From the NCBI GenBank assembly GCA_051313645.2, contig JBNRSN020000184.1:434001-498000 (forward strand): a stretch of DNA of 64,000 nucleotides, in the 5' to 3' direction. A model generated the notes under the pieces. It made no database searches. It saw nothing but the letters and a program-made list of their open reading frames with translations, and had not been told where the DNA came from. Below are positions 3,173 through 52,878 of this stretch, in pieces (positions within the stretch are counted from its first letter, which is position 1; every line of letters begins with the position of its first letter). The translations under genes were made by a program, and so were the position numbers. This DNA comes from Centroscyllium fabricii. Its lineage: Eukaryota.

Positions 3173-3705
3173 CAGAGCAAAGAAACTTCTGTACCTTACC
3201 CTGGTATAGTTAACCTCTCCGTGAAGGTATCAATCCCAGCTTGGTTTAAATTCTAATGTAATCAAAGATGAATAGGATGGCAATGTTGAAACGAGCATTT
3301 ACCAGTGGGAATTAGGGGCTGATTATATGTCTGGCTGCATTATAGTCACTAAATATCAAAGTAATTCATTACACGCAAAGTGCTTCGAGATATTTCAGAG
3401 ACACAAGAAGCTATATAAATACAAGCCTTGCTTTCAAACAAAGACTCAGGAAGACCAAACTCCCTAAACAATCTGCTTCATCTACAAACTTATTTCTACT
3501 TTGTTATTAAAACAGTCACACAAAAACCTTCCGTCCAGTTAACCAGTGTTATTTTCCAGTAACTTCTCAACTACATTAAGTTGATCTGACTTATGTCACC
3601 ATATATGGATACAATAGAATCTTCAGTACATCCATTCCAAGCCTCGCCTTCCACACATAACTAGCAAGGAACAGCTCAATTCAAAGCAAAAAGCAGGATT
3701 GCAGC

Positions 3706-6700
3706 ACATAATATTGACCTGTCCTGGGAGTGCTCACGGTGTAATATTCACCTGTCCCGGGAGTGCTCACGGTGTAATAATCACCTGTCCCAGGAGTACT
3801 CACGGTGTAATATTCACCTGTCCCAGGAGTGCTCACGGTGTAATAATCACCTGTCCCAGGAGTACTCACGGTGTAATATTCACCTGTCCCAGGTGTGCTC
3901 ACGGTGTAATATTCACCTGTCCCAGGAGTGCTCACGGTGTAATATTCACCTGTCCCGGGAGTGCTCAGGGTGTAATATTCACCTGTCCCAGGAGTGCTCA
4001 CGGTGTAATATTCACCTGTCCCGGGAGTGCTCACAGTGTAATATTCACCTGTCCCGGGAGTGCTCACGGTGTAATATTCACCTGTCCCAGGAGTGCTCAC
4101 GGTGTAATATTCACCTGTCCCAGGAGTGCTCACGGTGTAATATTCACCTGTCCCGGGAGTGCTCACAGTGTAATATTCACCTGTCCCGGGAGTGCTCACG
4201 GTGTAATATTCACCTGTCCCGGGAGTGCTCACGGTGTAATATTCACCTGTCCTGGGAGTGCTCACGGTGTAATATTCACCTGTCCCGGGAGTGCTCACGG
4301 TGTAATATTCACCTGTCCTGGGAGTGCTCACGGTGTAATATTCACCTGTCCCGGGAGTGCTCACAGTGTAATATTCACCTGTCCTGGGAGTGCTCAGTGT
4401 AATATTCACCTGTCCCGAGAGTGCTCACGGTGTAATATTCACCTGTCCCGGGAGTGCTCACGGTGTAATATTCACCTGTCCCGGGAGTGCTCACAGTGTA
4501 ATATTCACCTGTCCTGGGAGTGCTCAGTGTAATATTCACCTGTCCCGGGAGTGCTCACGGTGTAATATTCACCTGTCCCGAGAGTGCTCACGGTGTAATA
4601 TTCACCTGTCCCAGGAGTGCTCACGGTGTAATATTCACCTGTCCTGGGAGTGTTCACGGTGTAATATTCACCTGTCCCAGGAGTGTTCACGGTGTAATAT
4701 TCACCTGTCCCAGGAGTGCTCACGGTGTAATATTCACCTGTCCCAGGAGAGCTCACGGTGTAATATTCACCTGTCCCAGAAGTGCTCACGGTGTAATATT
4801 CACCTGTCCCAGGAGTGCTCACGGTGTAATATTCACCTGTCCCGGGAGTGCTCACGGTGTAATATTCACCTGTCCCGGGAGTGCTCACAGTGTAATATTC
4901 ACCTGTCCCAGGAGTGCTCACGGTGTAATATTCACCTGTCCCGGGAGTGCTCACGGTGTAATATTCACCTGTCCCAGGAGTGCTCACAGTGTAATATTCA
5001 CCTGTCCCGGGAGTGCTCACGGTGTAATATTCACCTGTCCCGGGAGTGCTCACGGTGTAATATTCACCTGTCCCGGGAGTGCTCACGGTGTAATATTCAC
5101 CTGTCCCGAGAGTGCTCACGGTGTAATATTCACCTGTCCCGAGAGTGCTCACGGTGTAATATTCACCTGTCCCAGGAGTGCTCACGGTGTAATATTCACC
5201 TGTCCCAGGAGTGCTCACGGTGTAATATTCACCTGTCCCGGGAGTGCTCACGGTGTAATATTCACCTGTCCCGAGAGTGCTCACGGTGTAATATTCACCT
5301 GTCCCGGGAGTGCTCACGGTGTAATATTCACCTGTCCCGGGAGTGCTCACGGTGTAATATTCACCTGTCCCGGGAGTGCTCACGGTGTAATATTCACCTG
5401 TCCCAGGAGCGCTCACGGTGTAATATTCACCTGTCCCGGGAGTGCTCACGGTGTAATATTCACCTGTCCCAGGAGTGCTCACGGTGTAATATTCACCTGT
5501 CCCAGGAGTGCTCACGGTGTAATATTCACCTGTCCCAGGAGTGCTCACGGTGTAATATTCACCTGTCCCAGGAGTGCTCACGGTGTAATATTCACCTGTC
5601 CCGGGAGTGCTCACGGTGTAATATTCACCTGTCCCAGGAGTGCTCACGGTGTAATATTCACCTGTCCCAGGAGTGCTCACGGTGTAATATTCACCTGTCC
5701 CACGAGTGCTCACGGTGTAATATTCACCTGTCCCACGAGTGCTCACAGTGTAATATTCACCTGTCCCAGGAGTGCTCACGGTGTAATATTCACCTGTCCC
5801 GGGAGTGCTCACGGTGTAATATTCACCTGTCCCAGGAGTGCTCACGGTGTAATATTCACCTGTCCCAGGAGTGCTCACGGTGTAATATTCACCTGTCCCA
5901 CGAGTGCTCAGTGTAATATTCACCTGTCCCAGGAGTGCTCACGGTGTAATATTCACCTGTCCCACGAGTGCTCACAGTGTAATATTCACCTGTCCCAGGA
6001 GTGCTCACGGTGTAATATTCACCTGTCCCAGGAGTGCTCACGGTGTAATATTCACCTGTCCCAGGAGTGCTCACTGTAATATTCACCTGTCCCGGGAGTG
6101 CTCACGGTGTAATATTCACCTGTCCCGGGAGTGCTCATGGTGTAATATTCACCTGTCCCAGGAGTGCTCACGGTGTAATATTCACCTGTCCCAGGAGTAC
6201 TCACGGTGTAATATTCACCTGTCCCGGGAGTGCTCACGGTGTAATATTCACCTGTCCCGGGAGTGCTCACGGTGTAATATTCACCTGTCCCAGGAGTGCT
6301 CACGGTGTAATATTCACCTGTCCCAGGAGTACTCACGGTGTAATATTCACCTGTCCCGGGAGTGCTCACGGTGTAATATTCACCTGTCCCAGGAGTACTC
6401 ACGGTGTAATATTCACCTGTCCCGGGGGTGCTCACGGTGTAATATTCACCTGTCCCAGGAGTGCTCACAGTGTAATATTCACCTGTCCCAGGAGTGCTCA
6501 CGGTGTAATATTCACCTGTCCCGGGAGTGCTCACGGTGTAATATTCACCTGTCCCAGGAGTACTCACGGTGTAATATTCACCTGTCCCGGGGGTGCTCAC
6601 GGTGTAATATTCACCTGTCCCAGGAGTGCTCACGGTGTAATATTCACCTGTCCCGGGGGTGCTCACGGTGTAATATTCACCTGTCCCGGGAGTGCTCACG

Positions 6701-7222
6701 GTGTAATATTCACCTGTCCCAGGAGTGCTCACGGTGTAATATTCACCTGTCCCGGGAGTGCTCACGGTGTAATATTCACCTGTCCCGGGGGTGCTCACGG
6801 TGTAATATTCCCCTTTCCCGGGAGTGCTCACGGTGTAATATTCACCTGTCCCAGGAGTGCTCACGGTGTAATATTCACCTGTCCCAGGAGTGCTCACGGT
6901 GTAATATTCACCTGTCCCAGGAGTGCTCACGGTGTAATATTCACCTGTCCCGGGAGTGCTCACGGTGTAATATTCACCTGTCCCGGGGGTGCTCACAGTG
7001 TAATATTCCCCTTTCCCGGGAGTGCTCACGGTGTAATATTCACCTGTCCCGGGAGTGCTCACGGTGTAATATTCACCTGTCCCAGGAGTGCTCACAGTGT
7101 AATATTCACCTGTCCCGAGAGTGCTCAGTGTAATATTCCCCTTTCCCGGGAGTGCTCACAGTGTAATATTCCCCTTTCCCGGGAGTGCTCACAGTGTAAT
7201 ATTCACCTGACCCAGGAGTACA
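3706..7222. repeat. 33-bp minisatellite, about 106 units
   Basis: Head-to-tail GTGTAATATTCACCTGTCCCRGGAGTGCTCACG with no spacers; occasional 31-bp units. Confidence 0.98.
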
Positions 7223-7391
7223 GTGGAGGGAGTGGACAGAGTGGATGTTTAGTGGTGTTTGTGCTCCCGATTGCTTTGTCTTCGATGGAGTCAGGTTACA
7301 TGTAATTCAAAAACATCTTAGCACCACTTAGTGGTCAATTTAAGGAACTGCAGTAAGTTTATTGTATTTTTCTATTCGTCAATTACTGTCA

Positions 7392-7795: not shown

Positions 7796-7818
7796 ATTGT
7801 CACATCAACTCGCCTCCT

Positions 7819-10238
7819 GTGCAGCGTAGTCTCGGATTGAGCTGGGACCTTCGGAAGGACGTGTTCACATTCCGCGTTGCCAACAGTGAGAAGCCATTCA
7901 CTCGCAGAGGCGTCCTTGCAACTGTAAACAGCTTGTTCAACCCCCTTGGTCTTGTTGCGCCCATCACCATCCAAGGGAAACTCTTACTAAGAGAGCTCAC
8001 CAGCAACACCATTGACTGGGATGCCCCCCTCCCAGCTGAAAAGGAGACAGAATGGATTTCTCGGAGAGACTCATTGTGAGATCTCGAAGAGTTTGAAACC
8101 CCTCGAGCCGACACTGCAACTTCCCTCTCCAACGCTCAGAGTACAGAGATCCACATCTTCTCAGATTCTTTCATAAAGGCCATTGCAGCAGTAGCATATC
8201 TCAAGCGGACAGGTCTTGATGGAACATACCACATCGGTTTCATCATGGGGAAAGCCAAGTTCGCCCCTATGTTGATCCACACTGTTCCCAGGCTTGAGTT
8301 ATGTGCTGCTGTCCTGGCAATAGAAGTTGCAGAGCTGGTTATGAGTGAGCTGGACATCAAACTAGACGCTTTGAAGATCTACACGGACAGCAAGGTGGTG
8401 TTGGGGTACATCTACAATGAAACCAGGAGGTTTTATGTATACGTCCGCAACAGGGTGCAACGGATCAGGAAATTATCTCGCCCTGAGCAGTGGCATTACG
8501 TCCCCACCAGCCAGAACCCTGCAGATGTTGCTACCAAATCAGTGCCGGCAGCACGCCTCTCAGACACCAATTGGCTTACCGGTCCCGATTTCCTGTCCCA
8601 TTCTGTGGAGACAGAGATTACTGAGGAAACACCTTACGATCTCATTGATTCTGAGTCGGATACAGAGGTACGATCTCACATCACTACGTGCACCGACTCA
8701 CACACCGGTCTTGGCTCTCAACACTTTGAACGGTTTTCAACATGGCAATCTCTCATCAGAGCTATAGCTTCTCTCATCCCCATTGCTCCGTCCTTCAAGT
8801 CTGAAACAAACAAGCAGAGAAAAGACTGCCGTGGTTGGCATCATTGCTCAAAGCCTCACTCAGCTGATGTCCTGCCACGAGCAAAGGCCATCATCATTGG
8901 ATGTGTGCAGAATGAAGCATACCAAGCTGAGTTAACTTGCTTGAACAAAGGAAAAGACAGTCCTAGAAACAGTCCACTGAGGAAGCTCAACCCTGACCTA
9001 GATGACAATGGCCTCCTCAGAATAGGTGGTCGGCTCCAACATGCTGCACTCGACACAGCAGAGAAACACCCTCACATCATACCTGGCCATAGCCATGTTT
9101 CTACTCTACTGACAAACCACTACCACGAGAGGGTTAAGCACCAGGGCCGTGTCTTCACTGAGGGAGCCATCCGTTCAGATGGCATCTGGATAGTTGGGGG
9201 CCAAGAAATGTATCACCAGCAATCTACGTAAGTGTGTTACATGCAACAAACTCCGTGGGAGGACAGCAGAGCAGAGGATGGCAAATCTTCCCTCTGATCG
9301 CCTCAGCACAGAGCCACTCTTTACGAACGTGGGTCTGGATGTGTTCGGCCCCTGGAACATATCTACTCGCCGTACCCGTGGAGGTGCAGCAAACAGTAAA
9401 AGGTGGGCAGTTCTTTTCACGTGCCTAAGTGTACGAGCCGTGCACATTGAGCTCAGAGTCAATGGACACTTCGAGCTTTGTCAATGCTCGATGGCGCTTC
9501 TTTGCTGTCCGTGGTCCTGTAAAGCTGATCCGCTCCGACTGTGGCACAAACTTCAAGGGAGCCTGCAAAGAACTGCGAATCCTTCTAGAAGACGCACATG
9601 AGCCCAGTGTGTCAAGATACATCAGTGAGGAAGGATGCACATGGATCTTTAACCCACCTCACTCGTCCCATATGGGTGGAGTGTGGGAAAGGATGATCAG
9701 GGAAGACGAATCTTAGACTCCATGCTTTCACAAGTTGGTCCTTCACGTCTCACCCACGAGGTGCTTTCAACCCTCATGGCAGAGGTAACGGCAATAATCA
9801 ACGCAAGACCTCTCACCCCCATCTCTACTGATGCTGACTCACCTTTCTTCCTGACTCCAGCGACAATCCTGACCCAAAGTCTGTACCCCTCTTCCTCCTC
9901 CAGGGTCCTTTGAGAATGCAGATCTGCACCATCAACAGTGGAAGAGGGTCCAGCATCTTGCCAACACCTTTTGGCAGAGGTGGAGACGAGAGTATCTCTC
10001 TACGCTCCAAAGCCCAAGCAAATGGCAGGATAGTCGGCCCAACGTCAAAGAAGGAGACTTAGTGCTGCTCAGAGATACTCAGGTGAAAAGGAACCTGTGG
10101 CCCATGGCTCTGGTCACTAAAGCCCACCCTGACCGTGATGGCAAGGTCAGAAAGCTCGAGCTTAAGGTCACCAAAGGTGGGACCGTAAAGACTTTCCTCA
10201 GGCCCATTACAGAAGTGGTGGTGCTTATGTCTCCCTAA
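7819..10238 (+). pseudogene. BEL/Pao pol remnant (RNase H, integrase) with stops and frameshifts
   Basis: ORF pieces 7819-8079, 8245-9231, 9194-9601, 9429-9716 and 9683-9913 carry successive Pao pol motifs. Confidence 0.88.
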
Positions 10239-10755
10239 ACCTCTAACATGGCCAGTTCCTTTCGTTAGTTTGTTAAAGGCCCTGTCACACCTTGACGTTT
10301 TAGCTTGCGTATGCAAATTTGGCCGATACGCTGGTATACGTTGGACAAGTTATGGGTACGTTATGCATACGGTAAGAGCACGTTGCCATACGCTGGACAT
10401 AAGCTGTATACGTCGTTTAAGTCGTGATTTTTTGTGCATGCACAAAAAATCACGACGTATAAATGTAACTCTTTATACGCTCAGCATACGCTGAACATAC
10501 GTTGCAGGCACGTTAGGCGATCGTTGACACACTTTAGTCATACGTCATAATACGTCGAGATAATGCCTATTTTTCCAGGAACTTATGTCTAACCTATGAG
10601 TAACGTGCTTTGAACTTATGCGTAACGTATCTCCAACGCATATTGACGTATGTAGACGTATTTGACGTCTTGCGGACGACCACAGACCTTACTGAACGTG
10701 TTTCTAACTTACAGCTAACGTATAATGGCGTACTGGCAGCGTTTAGGGAATTTGG

Positions 10756-10765
10756 TATATAAAAA
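10756..10765 (+). promoter_or_regulatory. Putative TATA box of Harbinger 1 transposase
   Basis: TATATAAAAA about 75 bp upstream of the ATG. Harbinger 2 has an equivalent motif at 51583-51593 (minus). Confidence 0.5.
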
Positions 10766-10835
10766 GGGGTTTCACAGGAGGAACCAGTCAGTGTTCCAGA
10801 CTCCATGGTGAGCAGGTGTCCATGTAATCCAAGAG

Positions 10836-11908
10836 ATGGAGGATCCGGCAAGACGAGAATTACTACTAGCTGTCCTCCAACATCAACAAGCACTCTTCGA
10901 TTTTGCACTGTACCAGAGGCGTGCCAAAAGAGCCAAGAGAAGATTAGCTGAATGGAGGAGAAGGAACTGGGTGAGACCATGGATCGGGAGGCGACGGCAG
11001 TTTGGCATGTATGACCAGCTCATGGTGGAACTCCGTAACGAGGACCATGCATCCTTCACCAACTTCCTGCGTATGCCCCCAGCGATGTTCAACGAGCTGC
11101 TAGCCAGAGTGGGTCCAAGGATAACCAAGCAGTACACCTTCTACAGGGATCCGCTTGAGCCTGGCATGAAGCTGGCACTGACTTTGCGTCACCTTGCCTC
11201 TGGAAACAAGTATGCCTCGATGAAGTTCGCATGGAGGGTCCCTCACAACACCCAGTCCATAGTGGTCAGAGAAGTCTGTCAAGCCATTATTGACGAATAC
11301 GTGGATGAGGTGATGGTTTGCCCAACTACTCCTGATGGTTGGCGCGCCATAGCTGACAAGTTCTTCCAAAGATGGAACTTTCCCCATACATGTGGGGCAC
11401 TTGACGGGAAGCACGTGGCCTGCCGCTGTCCTCCAAAGACTGGGTCACAGTACTACAATTACAAAGGATTCTACTCCATTGTTCTGATGGCGCTTGTAGA
11501 TGCAGACTACAAATTTATTTGGGCAGATGTCGGCGGTACTGGATCTGCATCAGATGCGCAGATATACAATGGCTCTGAGCTAAAGGAATGCGCTGAAGAC
11601 GGTACCCTTGGTTTCACTGACCCTGAGCCTCTTCCCTACGACAACCAGGACGTGCCTTACTTCTTCATCGGTGACGATGCCTTCGCCTTACGACCAACCA
11701 TGATGAAGCCATTCAGCCTCCGTGGAATGACGAATGAAGAACGCATCTTCAACTACAGGCTTAGCCGAGCAAGAAGGGTAGTAGAAAATGCATTCGGCAT
11801 CCTGGCTAACAGATTCCAGGTTCTGCTAAGTACCATGCAGCATCACCCCTCCACTGTCAAGCTCATTGTCAAAGCATGCTTGATCCTGCACAACCTCATG
11901 AGGACCAG
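10836..11908 (+). CDS. Harbinger (HARBI1-like, DDE_Tnp_4) transposase, exon 1 of 2
   Basis: Motifs ALDGKH, YNYKGFYS, GDDAF and RRVVENAFG. Donor AG|GTAATT at 11909. Confidence 0.93.
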
Positions 11909-12105
11909 GTAATTAATGTTTACATAGCATATATTATACAGTATACAATGAAATTTAACTTTTAGCCTATGCTTATAAACATTATATGATTTACCTTAAA
12001 TTTTACATGTATCATTATATTACTTTTTAATGTACAGCGCATTAGAATATATGTTTTCATTATAGGTGCGCTTTATAAGTAAATAAAATCAAATTCAAAT
12101 TCCAG

Positions 12106-12322
12106 GTACCCAGGACTACAGAACCAGCAGCTTGACCAGGCAGAAAATGAGAACCGCGACCTTGTTCCAGGAGCATGGCGAAAGGGACATCAGTTGGAGG
12201 ATACACAGACAGCTGCTGGCCCCAACACTGCCTCCAAGGACGGAAGGAAACAGAGGAATCTCCTCAAGCACTGGGTTAACTCCACAGCTGGCGCAGTTCC
12301 GTGGCAAGATAGGATGATTTAG
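12106..12322 (+). CDS. Harbinger transposase, exon 2 of 2 (spliced product 429 aa)
   Basis: Acceptor TTCCAG|. Continues in frame as (R)YPGLQNQQLD...VPGAWRKG...WVNSTAGAVPWQDRMI*, which aligns with the C-terminus of the 50272-51549 transposase (IPGAWRDG...FNSAAGSVPWQDRM). Confidence 0.9.
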
Positions 12323-12837
12323 ATATTTGTATTACAGCATTGTTCAGGCAATAAAGAGACTTTCCTCCTGAAATGAACATCTTAAAGCCTTTTTTTCAAT
12401 TATCCACTTTTCAATATACATGTACATTATATCATTATACCTTTTTCAAAGTGATTGAATTTATTATTGTTAATTATTGTTGTAATGATTTAAATATTAA
12501 AGCAATAAAATCAGCAAACATCAACAGTTTGCTCAACTTTTATTAAATCTGTAGTGGTATGATTTGAATCGTCCAATGGCAGCCTTTGAATAGTCTACAC
12601 CACGTGATCTTTGGCGATACGCTGCCGCGCGCTATGCATACGTTAGACTATCGTTGGGCATACGTTATGAATACGCTACTAAACCGCAAAAATTGAACAA
12701 AGTGTCAAAAGTTTAGCGTTTTAGACTCATTTGCATAGGCTGGCTAAAACGTCTAGGTGTGACAGGGCCTTTACATCCGTCCTTCGGATTTTGTTAAGAA
12801 ATTGGTAGTGGTATCGAGTTCAATACCAGACGGGGAG

Positions 12838-13508
12838 TGTCATGTTACATGTAATTCAAAAACATCTTAGCACCACTTAGTGGTTAATTTAAGGAACTGC
12901 AGTAAGTTTATTGTATTTTTCTATTGGTCAATCACTGTCACATGACTAAGGTTATAGTTTAGGACCGCCATTTTTGTATTGAGAACACTCAAGCAAGCCA
13001 CCCAGTTCTGTTTTGTTTAATCTTCTTCCATCTGCTCCACATTGATCCTTGGAGAAGCTTTGTTTGTAAGTTATATTATATATCTTATCTATTTAGCAAA
13101 GTATATGTGGCTATTTTCCCATTTTCCTTTGTATTTGTGACGCTGTGTATATAAACAGCTCTTTCCTCGTTACTGTATGTAGCTCAGCCATTTCAATCAG
13201 CTTATTGTTAATATGGCAACTATAAGCACTCAGATTTCATGTATACTGTATGTGTACATTTATATACTTACCTGAGGGAATTTGTGTTGTGGAAGACATT
13301 CTATTAAGAATATTCTTTTTGTATTTGTCATTTCAGTTTCACACATGGGAAAGCACTTTGATAAAATACATGTTGGTCAAGACATACAAGTAAAAGGACC
13401 TAAACTTTACTTTTGCGTCCTGGTCATCATTCAAGGGTCTCGGTGCTCAGTACAAGTGTTTAGCTACCTGTCAATTCGTGTAGAGCCACGCACGCAGAGG
13501 ACAGAATA
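12838..13508 (+). repeat. BEL 3' LTR (671 bp)
   Basis: Starts TGTCATG immediately after the PPT, matches 7289-7394, and ends at TSD GATGG. Confidence 0.85.
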
Positions 13509-48626: not shown

Positions 48627-49679
48627 GTGGCCGTCTTTCTCGAAGGTAATGATTTTATTTTTAACAAGCGGCGGTTCGACCACTGCTTCGCTGACAGAAA
48701 ACACAGGGCGTGGGAGGAAGAGGCCAGGAACATGGGCAAGCAGGTGAAGGACCTGACAACCTTTTTTGATAGCATAAGGACACAGATGGGGAAGATGAGG
48801 AGAAAAACGAGTGGCCAGGGAACATTGGAGCTGACAGAGAGGCAGCAGTGGATCTGGACCCGCTTCCAGTTCCTCGTACCGCACATCGGCCATGTCACGA
48901 GGCGGACCGTGCAGAGCCTCAAGCCTGCTACCACACAGCCTGCTACTGCAGATCCTGAGGACAGGGATCCTGACGTGGAAATGGTGGATGAAAGTGTGCC
49001 CACGCCACCGCAGGAAAGCACCCCAAACTCCAGCATCACAACCGCCAGCAGCTGCAGAGGTGGCAGTCGAAAGAGGAGAGGGACAGCCATGGAGGAAGAT
49101 GAGGACATTGCAGGGGAGAGGGCCAGCTCAAGGGCGAGGCAGATGGAGCTGCTGGAGATCATCAGATCGAACGCTGATAATGCTGTTCCCTTTCCGGCCC
49201 GCCTCAAGTACGGTGAATTTTTGGGCCATTCTTTTCAGCAGCTGCCCCATTTTATGTACATTGAGCTCCGTGAGAAAATGTCGGCGCTCCTAACAGAGGC
49301 TGAGAAGAAGTTTGCTCTAATGGAGCAGTCCCGCCAGGGAGCATCGCCAGCACCACCTCCACCAGAACCAGCAGCCTCTCTACTTACAACACGCCCCTCA
49401 TCAACCTCATCCACCCTGCCCATGCAACCTCCTCGTCAGTGGCACCCACCCTACCAGCAGCAAGGCCAGTGGCACGGACATCAGTCGCAGTGGCACTCCA
49501 ACACTGTGATTACTCATCCTTGCCATCCCGCTGAAAGTTCCTGGATTGATCAGCAGCCAGGAACATCAATGCAAAGTGATCCCCACACTTTCACGATCCC
49601 TCCAACTGCAGACAGCCAACAGCCTGACATGAGTGCACCACCTGATGACTGTTATGTCCACGTCTCAGCAGGACACTAG
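48627..49679 (+). CDS. Harbinger accessory protein exon 2: MADF (Myb/SANT-like) domain plus BESS-like motif, 456 aa spliced
   Basis: Acceptor TTATTCTAG|. Sequence ..KHRAWEEEA..FDSIRTQMGK..SGQG..WIWTRFQFLVPH; later YGEFLGHSFQQLPHFMYIELREKMSALL. Confidence 0.8.
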   Translation: MAVFLEGNDFIFNKRRFDHCFADRKHRAWEEEARNMGKQVKDLTTFFDSIRTQMGKMRRKTSGQGTLELTERQQWIWTRFQFLVPHIGHVTRRTVQSLKPATTQPATADPEDRDPDVEMVDESVPTPPQESTPNSSITTASSCRGGSRKRRGTAMEEDEDIAGERASSRARQMELLEIIRSNADNAVPFPARLKYGEFLGHSFQQLPHFMYIELREKMSALLTEAEKKFALMEQSRQGASPAPPPPEPAASLLTTRPSSTSSTLPMQPPRQWHPPYQQQGQWHGHQSQWHSNTVITHPCHPAESSWIDQQPGTSMQSDPHTFTIPPTADSQQPDMSAPPDDCYVHVSAGH

Positions 49680-50271: not shown

Positions 50272-51549
50272 TCACACACGCTTGCTCAGTCCTGCCATTC
50301 TGTCCTGCCACGGAACAGATCCAGCAGCACTGTTGAAGTATGCTGTGAGGTAGTCCCTCTGGATCTTGCCCATCTGGTGGTCTATGTTACGTGCAGAGGG
50401 GTGTGTAACCGCGTGCATCTGCATGCCGTCCCTCCAGGCTCCAGGGATGATGCTGTGGTTGTCATCCTTGTGGTCCACCTCTGTGTTTCCAATTGCGGGG
50501 AACCTGATCCTCATGAGGTTGTGAAGCAGGACAGCTGTTTCCACCATGGTGCACACCATTTCTGGATGTTGTTCCAGGGTTCCAAGGAAGCATCTCCATC
50601 TGTTGGCCATTATTCCAAAGGCATTCTCCACCACGCGTCTGCCCCTTGAGATTCGGTAGTTGGCCACCATCATCTCATCACTGAGACCCCTCCTGGAGTA
50701 GGGTTTGATGAGGAAAGTTCTGAGGCCAAAAGCTTCGTCTCCCAGGATAAAGTAGGGCATGTCTCTGTCATCATTAGGCAAAGGGTCAGCGTCAGGGAAG
50801 TGGATGGTTTGGTCTTCTATGCATTCCCTCAGTTGTGAGGCCCCAAATATCTGTCCATCAGATTGATGACCTTGTCCACCAGTGTCAATCCAGATAAACT
50901 TATAATCTGCATCCACCAAGGCCAACAGAACCACGGAGAAGAAGCCCTTGTAATTGTAGTACACACTGCCAGACTTGGGTGGTTTCTTGAGGGCTATGTG
51001 TTTGCCATCCAAGGCCCCCAGGGCATGAGGAACATTCCACCGGTATTGGAACTGGTGGGCAATGGCTTTCCAGTCCTCCTGGGTCTGGGGCAGTGGCATG
51101 ACCTCGTCCTTTAGTGCTTGAATGATGGCATTGCATACCTCCTTGATGATCACTCCCACGGTGCTCCTGCCACATCTGAAGTTGAAGTGGAGGGTCGGGT
51201 ACCCGTCTCCTGTAGCCAGGTGTCTGAGGGTGAGGGCCAGCTTCAGTCCAGCATTTAGGGGTGGTCTCAGCCGGGTGTGCTGCCTCTGGATGAAAGGGGT
51301 GATCCTTTGGAGGAGCTCATCGAACATCTGCTGTGGCATTCTCACATAGTTGACGAAGGAGTTCTGATCTTCCAGCCTCAGTTCCTGCAGCAGTCTGTGG
51401 TAGTGCCCAAACTCTAGCCTTCTAGCCGGTGTCATCCATGGTCGAACCCACCAGCGCTTGCGTCTTCTTGGGGGTTCCAAGAACAGCAGGTCGTGATAGT
51501 GCTCCAACTCCGCAGCCAGAGCCACACATGCTTTCCATCGAACACCCAT
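50272..51549 (-). CDS. Harbinger (HARBI1-like) transposase, 425 aa, intronless
   Basis: Uninterrupted ORF with ALDGKH, YNYKGFFS, GDEAF and RRVVENAFG. Confidence 0.95.
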   Translation of the reverse strand: MGVRWKACVALAAELEHYHDLLFLEPPRRRKRWWVRPWMTPARRLEFGHYHRLLQELRLEDQNSFVNYVRMPQQMFDELLQRITPFIQRQHTRLRPPLNAGLKLALTLRHLATGDGYPTLHFNFRCGRSTVGVIIKEVCNAIIQALKDEVMPLPQTQEDWKAIAHQFQYRWNVPHALGALDGKHIALKKPPKSGSVYYNYKGFFSVVLLALVDADYKFIWIDTGGQGHQSDGQIFGASQLRECIEDQTIHFPDADPLPNDDRDMPYFILGDEAFGLRTFLIKPYSRRGLSDEMMVANYRISRGRRVVENAFGIMANRWRCFLGTLEQHPEMVCTMVETAVLLHNLMRIRFPAIGNTEVDHKDDNHSIIPGAWRDGMQMHAVTHPSARNIDHQMGKIQRDYLTAYFNSAAGSVPWQDRMAGLSKRV

Positions 51550-52878
51550 TGTACAAATGACAGGTTCAGCAGGGGTTCAGGGTTTTTTTATATGCTGGAA
51601 TATGCCGGAATATCAACAGCAATGCCAACTATCAAAATCAATTCTTAGATGATTCTTAGAATTCGTAACTAATTCGTGGAGTTCGTAGTGGATTCTTAAT
51701 TAATTCTTGCAATTTGTGGTGGATTCGTGAGTGATTCGTACCTCATTCCTACAATAATTCGTGATAGATTCGTAACCTTGTCCAGAATCGCCAAGAATTC
51801 ACCAAGAATCGCCAAGAATCAACCAAGAATTTTCGCATTTTTTGCAGAATCGCCAAGAATTTCGATTCTTGACGATTCTTGGGATTCTTGGCATTCTTAG
51901 CCTCCAGTGAAACTAGGGCATTAGCAATGTGACAATCTGTGTAAAAGTCTTGTCAATCGGTTTCGTCGGCAGCGCTAAACTTTTTAAAAGCCCGAAAGTT
52001 TTCGCACCCATCGCATTTAAAAGGGTTATAGCCTTTTTATCGTCATCAATTTCATTAGCTTGGCAATATATCTCGACTGTGTCGATATATGTGTCCCAAT
52101 TCTCCATCTCGCTGTCAAAAGCTGCCAAGCTATTATTTCTGGCCATTTTCTTAACCCTTTTATCTTTTCCAAAATGGCAATTTTTCCCGCCCTTGTCCTT
52201 CTTCACCGGGGTTTCCCGCTCTTTCTGAGTAAAGATGGCATTTTTCCCCGCCCTTGTCCTTCTTCCCCGGGGTTTACGCGCCTTTATTTATTTCTTTGGT
52301 TTGCCCAAGTGTGGCTCTGCAGTGTCCTGTCTGCAGAATTGCCTCTGCTGCACCAAAGCTTTTGCACGGCGTCTTGCAACCCTTTGCTCTGGGTTCGTGG
52401 CTTTCTGGTCGGTGCCGATTGTGCCCCGCTGCCAAAACCCTTCTATGTTTTCCCTGGCTCAGAAATCAGTGCTGAGCGCTTTGCCGCCAGCAATGGCTTC
52501 TCGACTTCCATCCTATTTATTTTCCGTTTTTCCCCGCTCCGTGACTCAGGCAGGCTGTCTTGGTCGTGCCGCCGGTCGGGAGAGTTTTTGAGAAAAGTAA
52601 ACAGTTGTACCTGCAGCCAGTCCGTGTGCTGGCTTCACCTCTGTGTCCATGTCTGTCCGCTAAAACCGGAGAACCAAGCCTGGTCCTCGACGGTTGGTTG
52701 GAGATTCAGCAGTCTTTCTTTCTGCTGGGCCTAGCTCAGTGCAGATTTTGCAGCCTGTCTGTACAGCAGGTGGAGTGCTGTACTCGATGCCCACTGCTGG
52801 AAGGTTCTGGAATGCTTCTGCTTTCGTTTTTTTTTAAACAGAAATCCACAAAGTGTGAGGCTGGGTTAGTTCCGCTAT

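Follow-up and report, generated by a model that had tools for sequence, protein, structure and literature searches.

An intron of probable LINE-tail origin in a Harbinger transposase gene

A transposase gene in Centroscyllium fabricii is interrupted by a short AT-rich segment that lies between two copies of the heptamer CCAGGTA, which raises the question of whether an inserted retroelement became a clean intron there, with its target-site duplication (TSD) supplying both splice sites. The original prediction, made on the 64,000-nucleotide (nt) stretch of DNA analysed here (hereafter, the window), described exactly such an event and took it for an apparent intron birth. Our analysis supports the reality of the intron and makes a LINE-tail origin probable, although the event is likely to be older than that first account implied.

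Host transposon, intron anatomy and splicing

The interrupted gene belongs to a PIF/Harbinger element, here termed family A, which spans 10277–12770 (2494 bp, + strand, as are all features of the element given below) and has terminal inverted repeats that start with AGGCCC. PIF/Harbinger DNA transposons are described as carrying a transposase plus a Myb/MADF protein (PMC9179366). The element shares with them a HARBI1-type DDE_Tnp_4 transposase (Pfam PF13359, E 1.5e-29 for exon 1), whose named relatives are annotated HARBI1/ALP1-like, as well as the terminal inverted repeats and a 3-bp TAA/TTA duplication. It differs in that the window copy has the transposase gene only, without a Myb/MADF gene, and in that its clade holds an intron that is absent from more distant relatives. 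A second family in this genome, family B (4.06–4.18 kb; loci L222 and L223), is 96% identical to family A in exon 1 and has a MADF gene on the strand opposite the transposase, the gene content of an autonomous PIF/Harbinger element. Family B is young and likely to be autonomous, and could provide family A with its missing partner protein.

The 20 fetched family A copies are 99.1–99.8% identical to the window element, and the 7.2-Gb genome contains 2,284 exact matches to an 18-letter donor pattern, a count that spans families A and B. The transposon is young and high-copy, and its clade has at least 2,284 copies in this genome. A matching 3-bp duplication flanks 10 of 10 other copies examined, and is TAA or TTA in nine of them. 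The window copy itself has TAA on the left (10274–10276) and TTA on the right (12771–12773), a mismatch that could be explained by point mutation or by recombination between copies. On one side of the element lie a purine tract and LTR-like text (12825–12960), the latter recurring near 7295 (7290–7390); on its other side a broken pol-like region (7800–10240), presumably BEL/Pao-like, comes to its end. Positions 3570–7220 of the window hold a long tandem array with a 33-bp unit and more than 100 overlapping matches. Contigs from two sequencing runs (X15 and X16) fuse sequence from the beginning of the transposase frame to position 11833, which suggests an internally deleted derivative common to two organisms.

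The two CCAGGTA copies lie at 11905–11911 and 12102–12108 with 190 nt between them, and the repeat extends no further on either side. As had been predicted, the GT donor (11909–11910) sits in the first copy and the AG acceptor (12104–12105) in the second, delimiting a GT..AG intron at 11909–12105 (197 nt, 22% G+C, phase 2, inside an Arg codon). Its excision joins exon 1 (10836–11908, with the DDE_Tnp_4 domain) to exon 2 (12106–12322, ending in TAG) and restores the frame, giving an open reading frame from the ATG at 10836 to the stop at 12320–12322 that encodes a transposase of 429 aa; retention of the intron leads to a TAA stop after the Arg codon. From 5′ to 3′, the insert comprises an AT-rich part (11912–12030) that is possibly a LINE 3′ untranslated region (UTR), an L2/CR1-type 3′-tail motif (12031–12080) with conserved arms at 12031–12046 and 12067–12080, and a terminal segment (12082–12101) in which AATAAA (12082–12087) is followed by two copies of TCAAAT (12089–12100), a candidate LINE terminal repeat. 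The last 30 nt of the intron have a pyrimidine content of 43% and the nearest YTRAY is at 12027; polypyrimidine-tract and branch-point signals are thus weak here, but they vary between lineages.

A distant Harbinger transposase elsewhere in the window (50272–51576, − strand) had been named as an intronless homolog, and it is indeed uninterrupted at the site, where AG|GT is present; the 429-aa protein is colinear with it and identical at 52% of 390 aa. Facing this gene, at 48627–49679, is a weak match to MADF (E 7e-4, below the curated cut-off), and locus L123 is a relative of the same distant Harbinger (48627–49679 / 50272–51576).

Twenty runs from 12 studies contain the stretch or part of it, none of them recorded as RNA, and we examined 8 of the 24 listed runs. 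Contigs of related elements show an exact skip of 197 nt with GT..AG ends in all four of the runs that we guessed to be RNA (3 studies), and three of these four also contain the unspliced intron. Among a further four runs, for which the type of library is not recorded, two have the joined form, there in a more diverged subfamily, and one has the whole long intron within a single contig. Run X10 gave no contig and run X11 one short contig only. A joined contig of a related element could alternatively represent an intronless DNA copy. Judged by these contigs, which come from related elements in other organisms and whose RNA nature we infer, 11909–12105 is very likely to be spliced, and the precise skip agrees with the prediction of a real intron. 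Run X12 contains a relative that is about 88% identical in the exon; its intron start diverges after GTAATT (window position 11914) and, by eye, still appears related.

The LINE-like tail and the flanking repeat

The 3′ end of the insert had been likened to L2-type tails at about 16983, 21270 and 41447. We gathered 60 LINE/SINE tails from this genome via anchors upstream of the tail, one set located behind reverse-transcriptase frames (RVT_1) and the other representing what we take to be a Deu-type SINE (the SINEs of this genome presumably resemble those of cartilaginous fish), and derived from them a two-arm matrix whose arm limits were chosen after the intron had been seen. With this matrix the intron scores 21.3 bits at 12031, a value that 0 of 1500 shuffles reach and below which 7 of the 60 training tails rank. 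Random sequence of the composition of the intron gives about 1e-4 matches per 197 nt, and 456,304 control bases from metagenome loci contain no site of 14 bits or more. Five sites in the window reach at least 18 bits, namely the intron, the three named tails and one at 3374, which bears out the likeness. The last of these (3374–3420, 25.2 bits) is a decayed L2-type tail, additional to those named earlier.

At the same place in the intron, a LINE-only profile built from 30 LINE ends is equalled by 0 of 2000 shuffles with composition correction off and by 3 of 2000 with the correction on, in which case the intron scores only 1.2 bits. A mixed LINE/SINE profile gave no match to the intron, and the sole Rfam match is at chance level (E 0.97). 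The tail region folds as a predicted stem-loop (z −1.92; 6 of 200 shuffles), and the intron has the conserved 3′-tail stem-loop motif of L2/CR1 elements. The tail lies in sense orientation, 21 nt upstream of the second CCAGGTA; the A-rich stretch between them contains the AATAAA and no pyrimidine tract. An arrangement of this kind has been described for LINEs that terminate in tandem repeats (PMC4758252; PMC3747384).

Upstream of the tail the picture is different. The 119 nt there show no LINE similarity when compared with L2 ends of this genome, the score being attained by 98 of 500 shuffles, and neither a reverse-transcriptase frame nor a SINE body was found against these local ends (protein, 61 of 200 shuffles; DNA, 80–302 of 500). 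A long 3′ UTR would likewise leave no such remnant. A remnant of an L2 reading frame in the 5′ part of the intron was considered and is not supported, as shuffles score as high. A source for 11912–12101 in this genome, which the original prediction had hoped to trace, did not emerge: three patterns detected no free source copy, their matches comprising three that look like mutated local tails (judged from the matched text, not from alignments) and five ordinary element copies. One pattern had 0 matches in viral contigs. Given the lack of upstream similarity to local L2 ends and of a free source here, the source LINE is likely to be foreign or extinct.

The heptamer had been interpreted as a 7-bp TSD that supplies both splice sites. 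The repeat and the placement of GT and AG within it stand, whereas a true duplication is less secure: a GT..AG intron located at AG|GT in an exon necessarily produces four of the seven repeated bases (AGGT), and a diverged sister intron that is about 82% identical (run X20; one contig, depth 5) ends in CCAAG and does not keep the TCAAAT repeat. By our estimate from general splice-consensus frequencies, the remaining three bases match in about 5–12% of cases. Of 22 relatives that read through the site, 5 already have AG|GT there. Direct repeats at intron borders are known generally (PMC11782384) and, in Drosophila, repeats of at least 5 bp are reported at 26 of 100 random conserved introns (PMC3296678); new introns are said to prefer (A/C)AG|Gt sites (PMC3488318). 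Duplications made by L2-clade inserts are described as short, with a peak at 3–5 bp and lengths of up to 9 bp in cell assays (PMC4245944), so a 7-bp duplication is plausible.

History of the intron

Metagenome relatives of the transposase read through the intron site in DNA: the scored motif was found in 21 of 81 loci and the intron there in none. These read-through relatives include locus L022, which is 86% identical in DNA. Absence of the intron is therefore likely to be the ancestral state, and the intron was gained within this transposase clade, as the prediction of an intron birth entails. Scans of the genome and of viral contigs returned 1 and 0 relatives, respectively.

The gain does not appear to be recent. 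Six of 169 aligned proteins end exactly at the intron codon, with other premature positions listed at 1–3 proteins each; those that end there include a shrimp model (P0125, 86% identical), a hagfish model (P0130, 94%) and three clusters (76–81%). As protein models, such ends would fit a retained intron, and a Tyr-to-stop mutation would look alike. Putative carriers of the intron are the Palaemon carinicauda models XP_068235815.1 and XP_068231978.1, Myxine glutinosa copies and the contigs that underlie P0007, P0011 and P0013. Because shrimp, hagfish and the 76–81%-identical relatives stop at the same codon, the intron is likely to be old, and a recent birth in this genome finds no support, with the site apparently common to all of these. 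The possibility raised at the outset as a refutation, that distant relatives share the intron at this position without the duplication, is thus realized in part, to the extent that these models stop there. Identities of 87–94% to shrimp, snail and hagfish proteins suggest that the transposon may have been transferred horizontally between marine animals; Harbinger transfer between fish has been described (PMC9179366).

Several forms of the intron coexist in this genome. No intronless close copies were found here, and the search for them yielded one donor point mutant and one distant family of 52%. Among 18 acceptor-variant loci, the intron is present from donor to acceptor in 16 and by its 3′ part only in 2. 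In family B the intron is 106 nt long: the 91 nt between two TTATA words (11982–12072) are lost and the hairpin with them, and both ends are intact. Base 11951 is A in families A and B and C in outside holders, including the approximately 82%-identical sister intron; the long intron is therefore older than the short form of family B, which the shared A rules out as the ancestral form. At loci L191, L198 and L202 the intron has a third length, of about 183 nt, and is missing a short segment close to the donor.

The original prediction had proposed that intron presence be mapped onto a transposase phylogeny. An approximately unbiased (AU) test rejected a single clade of carriers with 30 rows (p 0.005), two of them read-through rows that are possibly RNA-derived, and did not reject it with 19 rows (p 0.34), after removal of the two together with further rows that were annotated or came from short contigs; the group tested had been named after the first tree had been seen. 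The phylogeny thus makes no decision between single and repeated gain. The metagenome Harbinger transposases L040, L046, L050, L053, L058, L067 and L068 are interrupted elsewhere, as in the vicinity of residues 235 and 322–327, and these breaks are possibly further lineage-specific introns.

Competing origins and known systems

Our preferred reading, which we hold to be about equally apt to prove right or wrong, is a 5′-truncated L2/CR1-type insertion with a target duplication that supplied both splice sites. A 5′-truncated L2/CR1-type LINE, or a SINE with the same tail, would have landed in sense orientation at the AG|GT of Arg-Tyr codons; the duplicated target would have provided the insert with GT at its 5′ boundary and CAG at its 3′ boundary; and splicing would restore the exact mRNA, so that the element could stay mobile. 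This was probably a single event, long ago, in a former host, after which the intron would likely have been carried along as the clade spread between marine animals. In some lineages it would have been eroded, as in the 106-nt form, and others may have lost it. Of the earlier proposal that a truncated retroelement became the intron, our data retain the significant L2/CR1-type sense tail adjoining the second CCAGGTA; LINE origin of the whole insert and the source element have not followed.

The same observations can be read differently. An older intron might have been gained in some other way at a proto-splice site and an L2/CR1-type tail might have entered it later, near the 3′ end, in which case the paired CCAGGTA would be mostly consensus. 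We regard this as a rather unlikely but serious alternative. The shared stop codon of the shrimp, hagfish and 76–81% models, the lack of LINE similarity in the 5′ part, the CCAAG acceptor of the diverged sister and the reported preference of new introns for (A/C)AG|Gt sites (PMC3488318) would all agree with it, as would the family B intron, with both ends intact and no hairpin; however, no leftover pyrimidine tract lies between tail and acceptor, the 82%-identical sister aligns through the hairpin region (11872–12089), so that the tail was present at that split, and the short form of family B is nested among long forms. It is improbable, in our judgement, that a LINE 3′-end fragment served as filler in the repair of a staggered double-strand break, with a repeat that arose from end-joining rather than target-primed insertion: an insert that stops at a LINE end, and in sense orientation, would be rare for a random fragment, even though the short terminal repeat is not conserved and repair-derived intron gain with flanking repeats has been proposed (PMC3296678). 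More doubtful still is a chance tail likeness in an ordinary AT-rich intron at a proto-splice site. The post hoc choice of the arm boundaries of the matrix, the failure of the mixed profile and the low composition-corrected LINE-only score leave some room for it, against which stand the shuffles that reach the score (0 of 1500 and 0–3 of 2000), the absence of matches in 456 kb of controls and the identity of the other matches in the window as the three named tails and the similar site at 3374.

A more far-reaching version of the preferred reading is that a LINE-born intron in a DNA transposon, moved horizontally among crustaceans, hagfish and other marine animals and thereby a fossil tag of an earlier host, has come to serve as a splicing switch. 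If the intron, which contains an AATAAA, were retained, translation would stop directly behind the catalytic domain and could give a truncated repressor, as the P element produces by intron retention. We consider this combination speculative and improbable as a whole.

Insertion-born introns are known from other systems. Introners whose two splice sites both come from the target have been described (PMC9860276, for the Florenciella type; PMC11282704), and non-LTR-derived introners are given as about 5% of classified cases (PMC12130899). Like the insertion that we propose, introners turn a mobile insertion into a clean intron that leaves the mRNA unchanged, with splice sites from a duplicated or neighbouring target. 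However, an introner family consists of similar introns scattered over many unrelated positions, whereas the Harbinger intron occupies one site in one transposase and multiplies as a passenger; because every copy examined sits at that same transposase site, it is not an introner. A large survey is summarized as detecting no introner pattern in vertebrates (PMC9860276). Insertion of Doc1053 with target duplication reportedly made intron 3 of Drosophila sechellia GM26034 (PMC3296678), likewise a case of a single retrotransposon insertion with target duplication giving a new intron. That insert is a 98.4% match to its source and lengthened the protein by five amino acids, whereas the Harbinger intron adds none, lies inside another transposon and has a source that was not found. 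CACTA transposases resemble the present case in that intron presence differs among transposase lineages; both gain and loss are reported for them, with losses prevailing and one putative gain for which the abstract names no source (PMC4158355). In our literature search, with most subscription papers and repeat databases outside its scope, neither this element nor a Harbinger transposase with a LINE-born intron came up.

The mechanism that we favour is already known and the setting is unusual; the value of the locus is that of a clean, testable example, not of a new principle. Few clear intron gains in animals have an origin that can still be read. In this single transposon clade, the long intron is found alongside a deleted form, diverged forms and the empty site, and gain, erosion and loss can therefore be traced with public genomes. 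The source LINE, if found, would point to a past host of this widely spread transposon.
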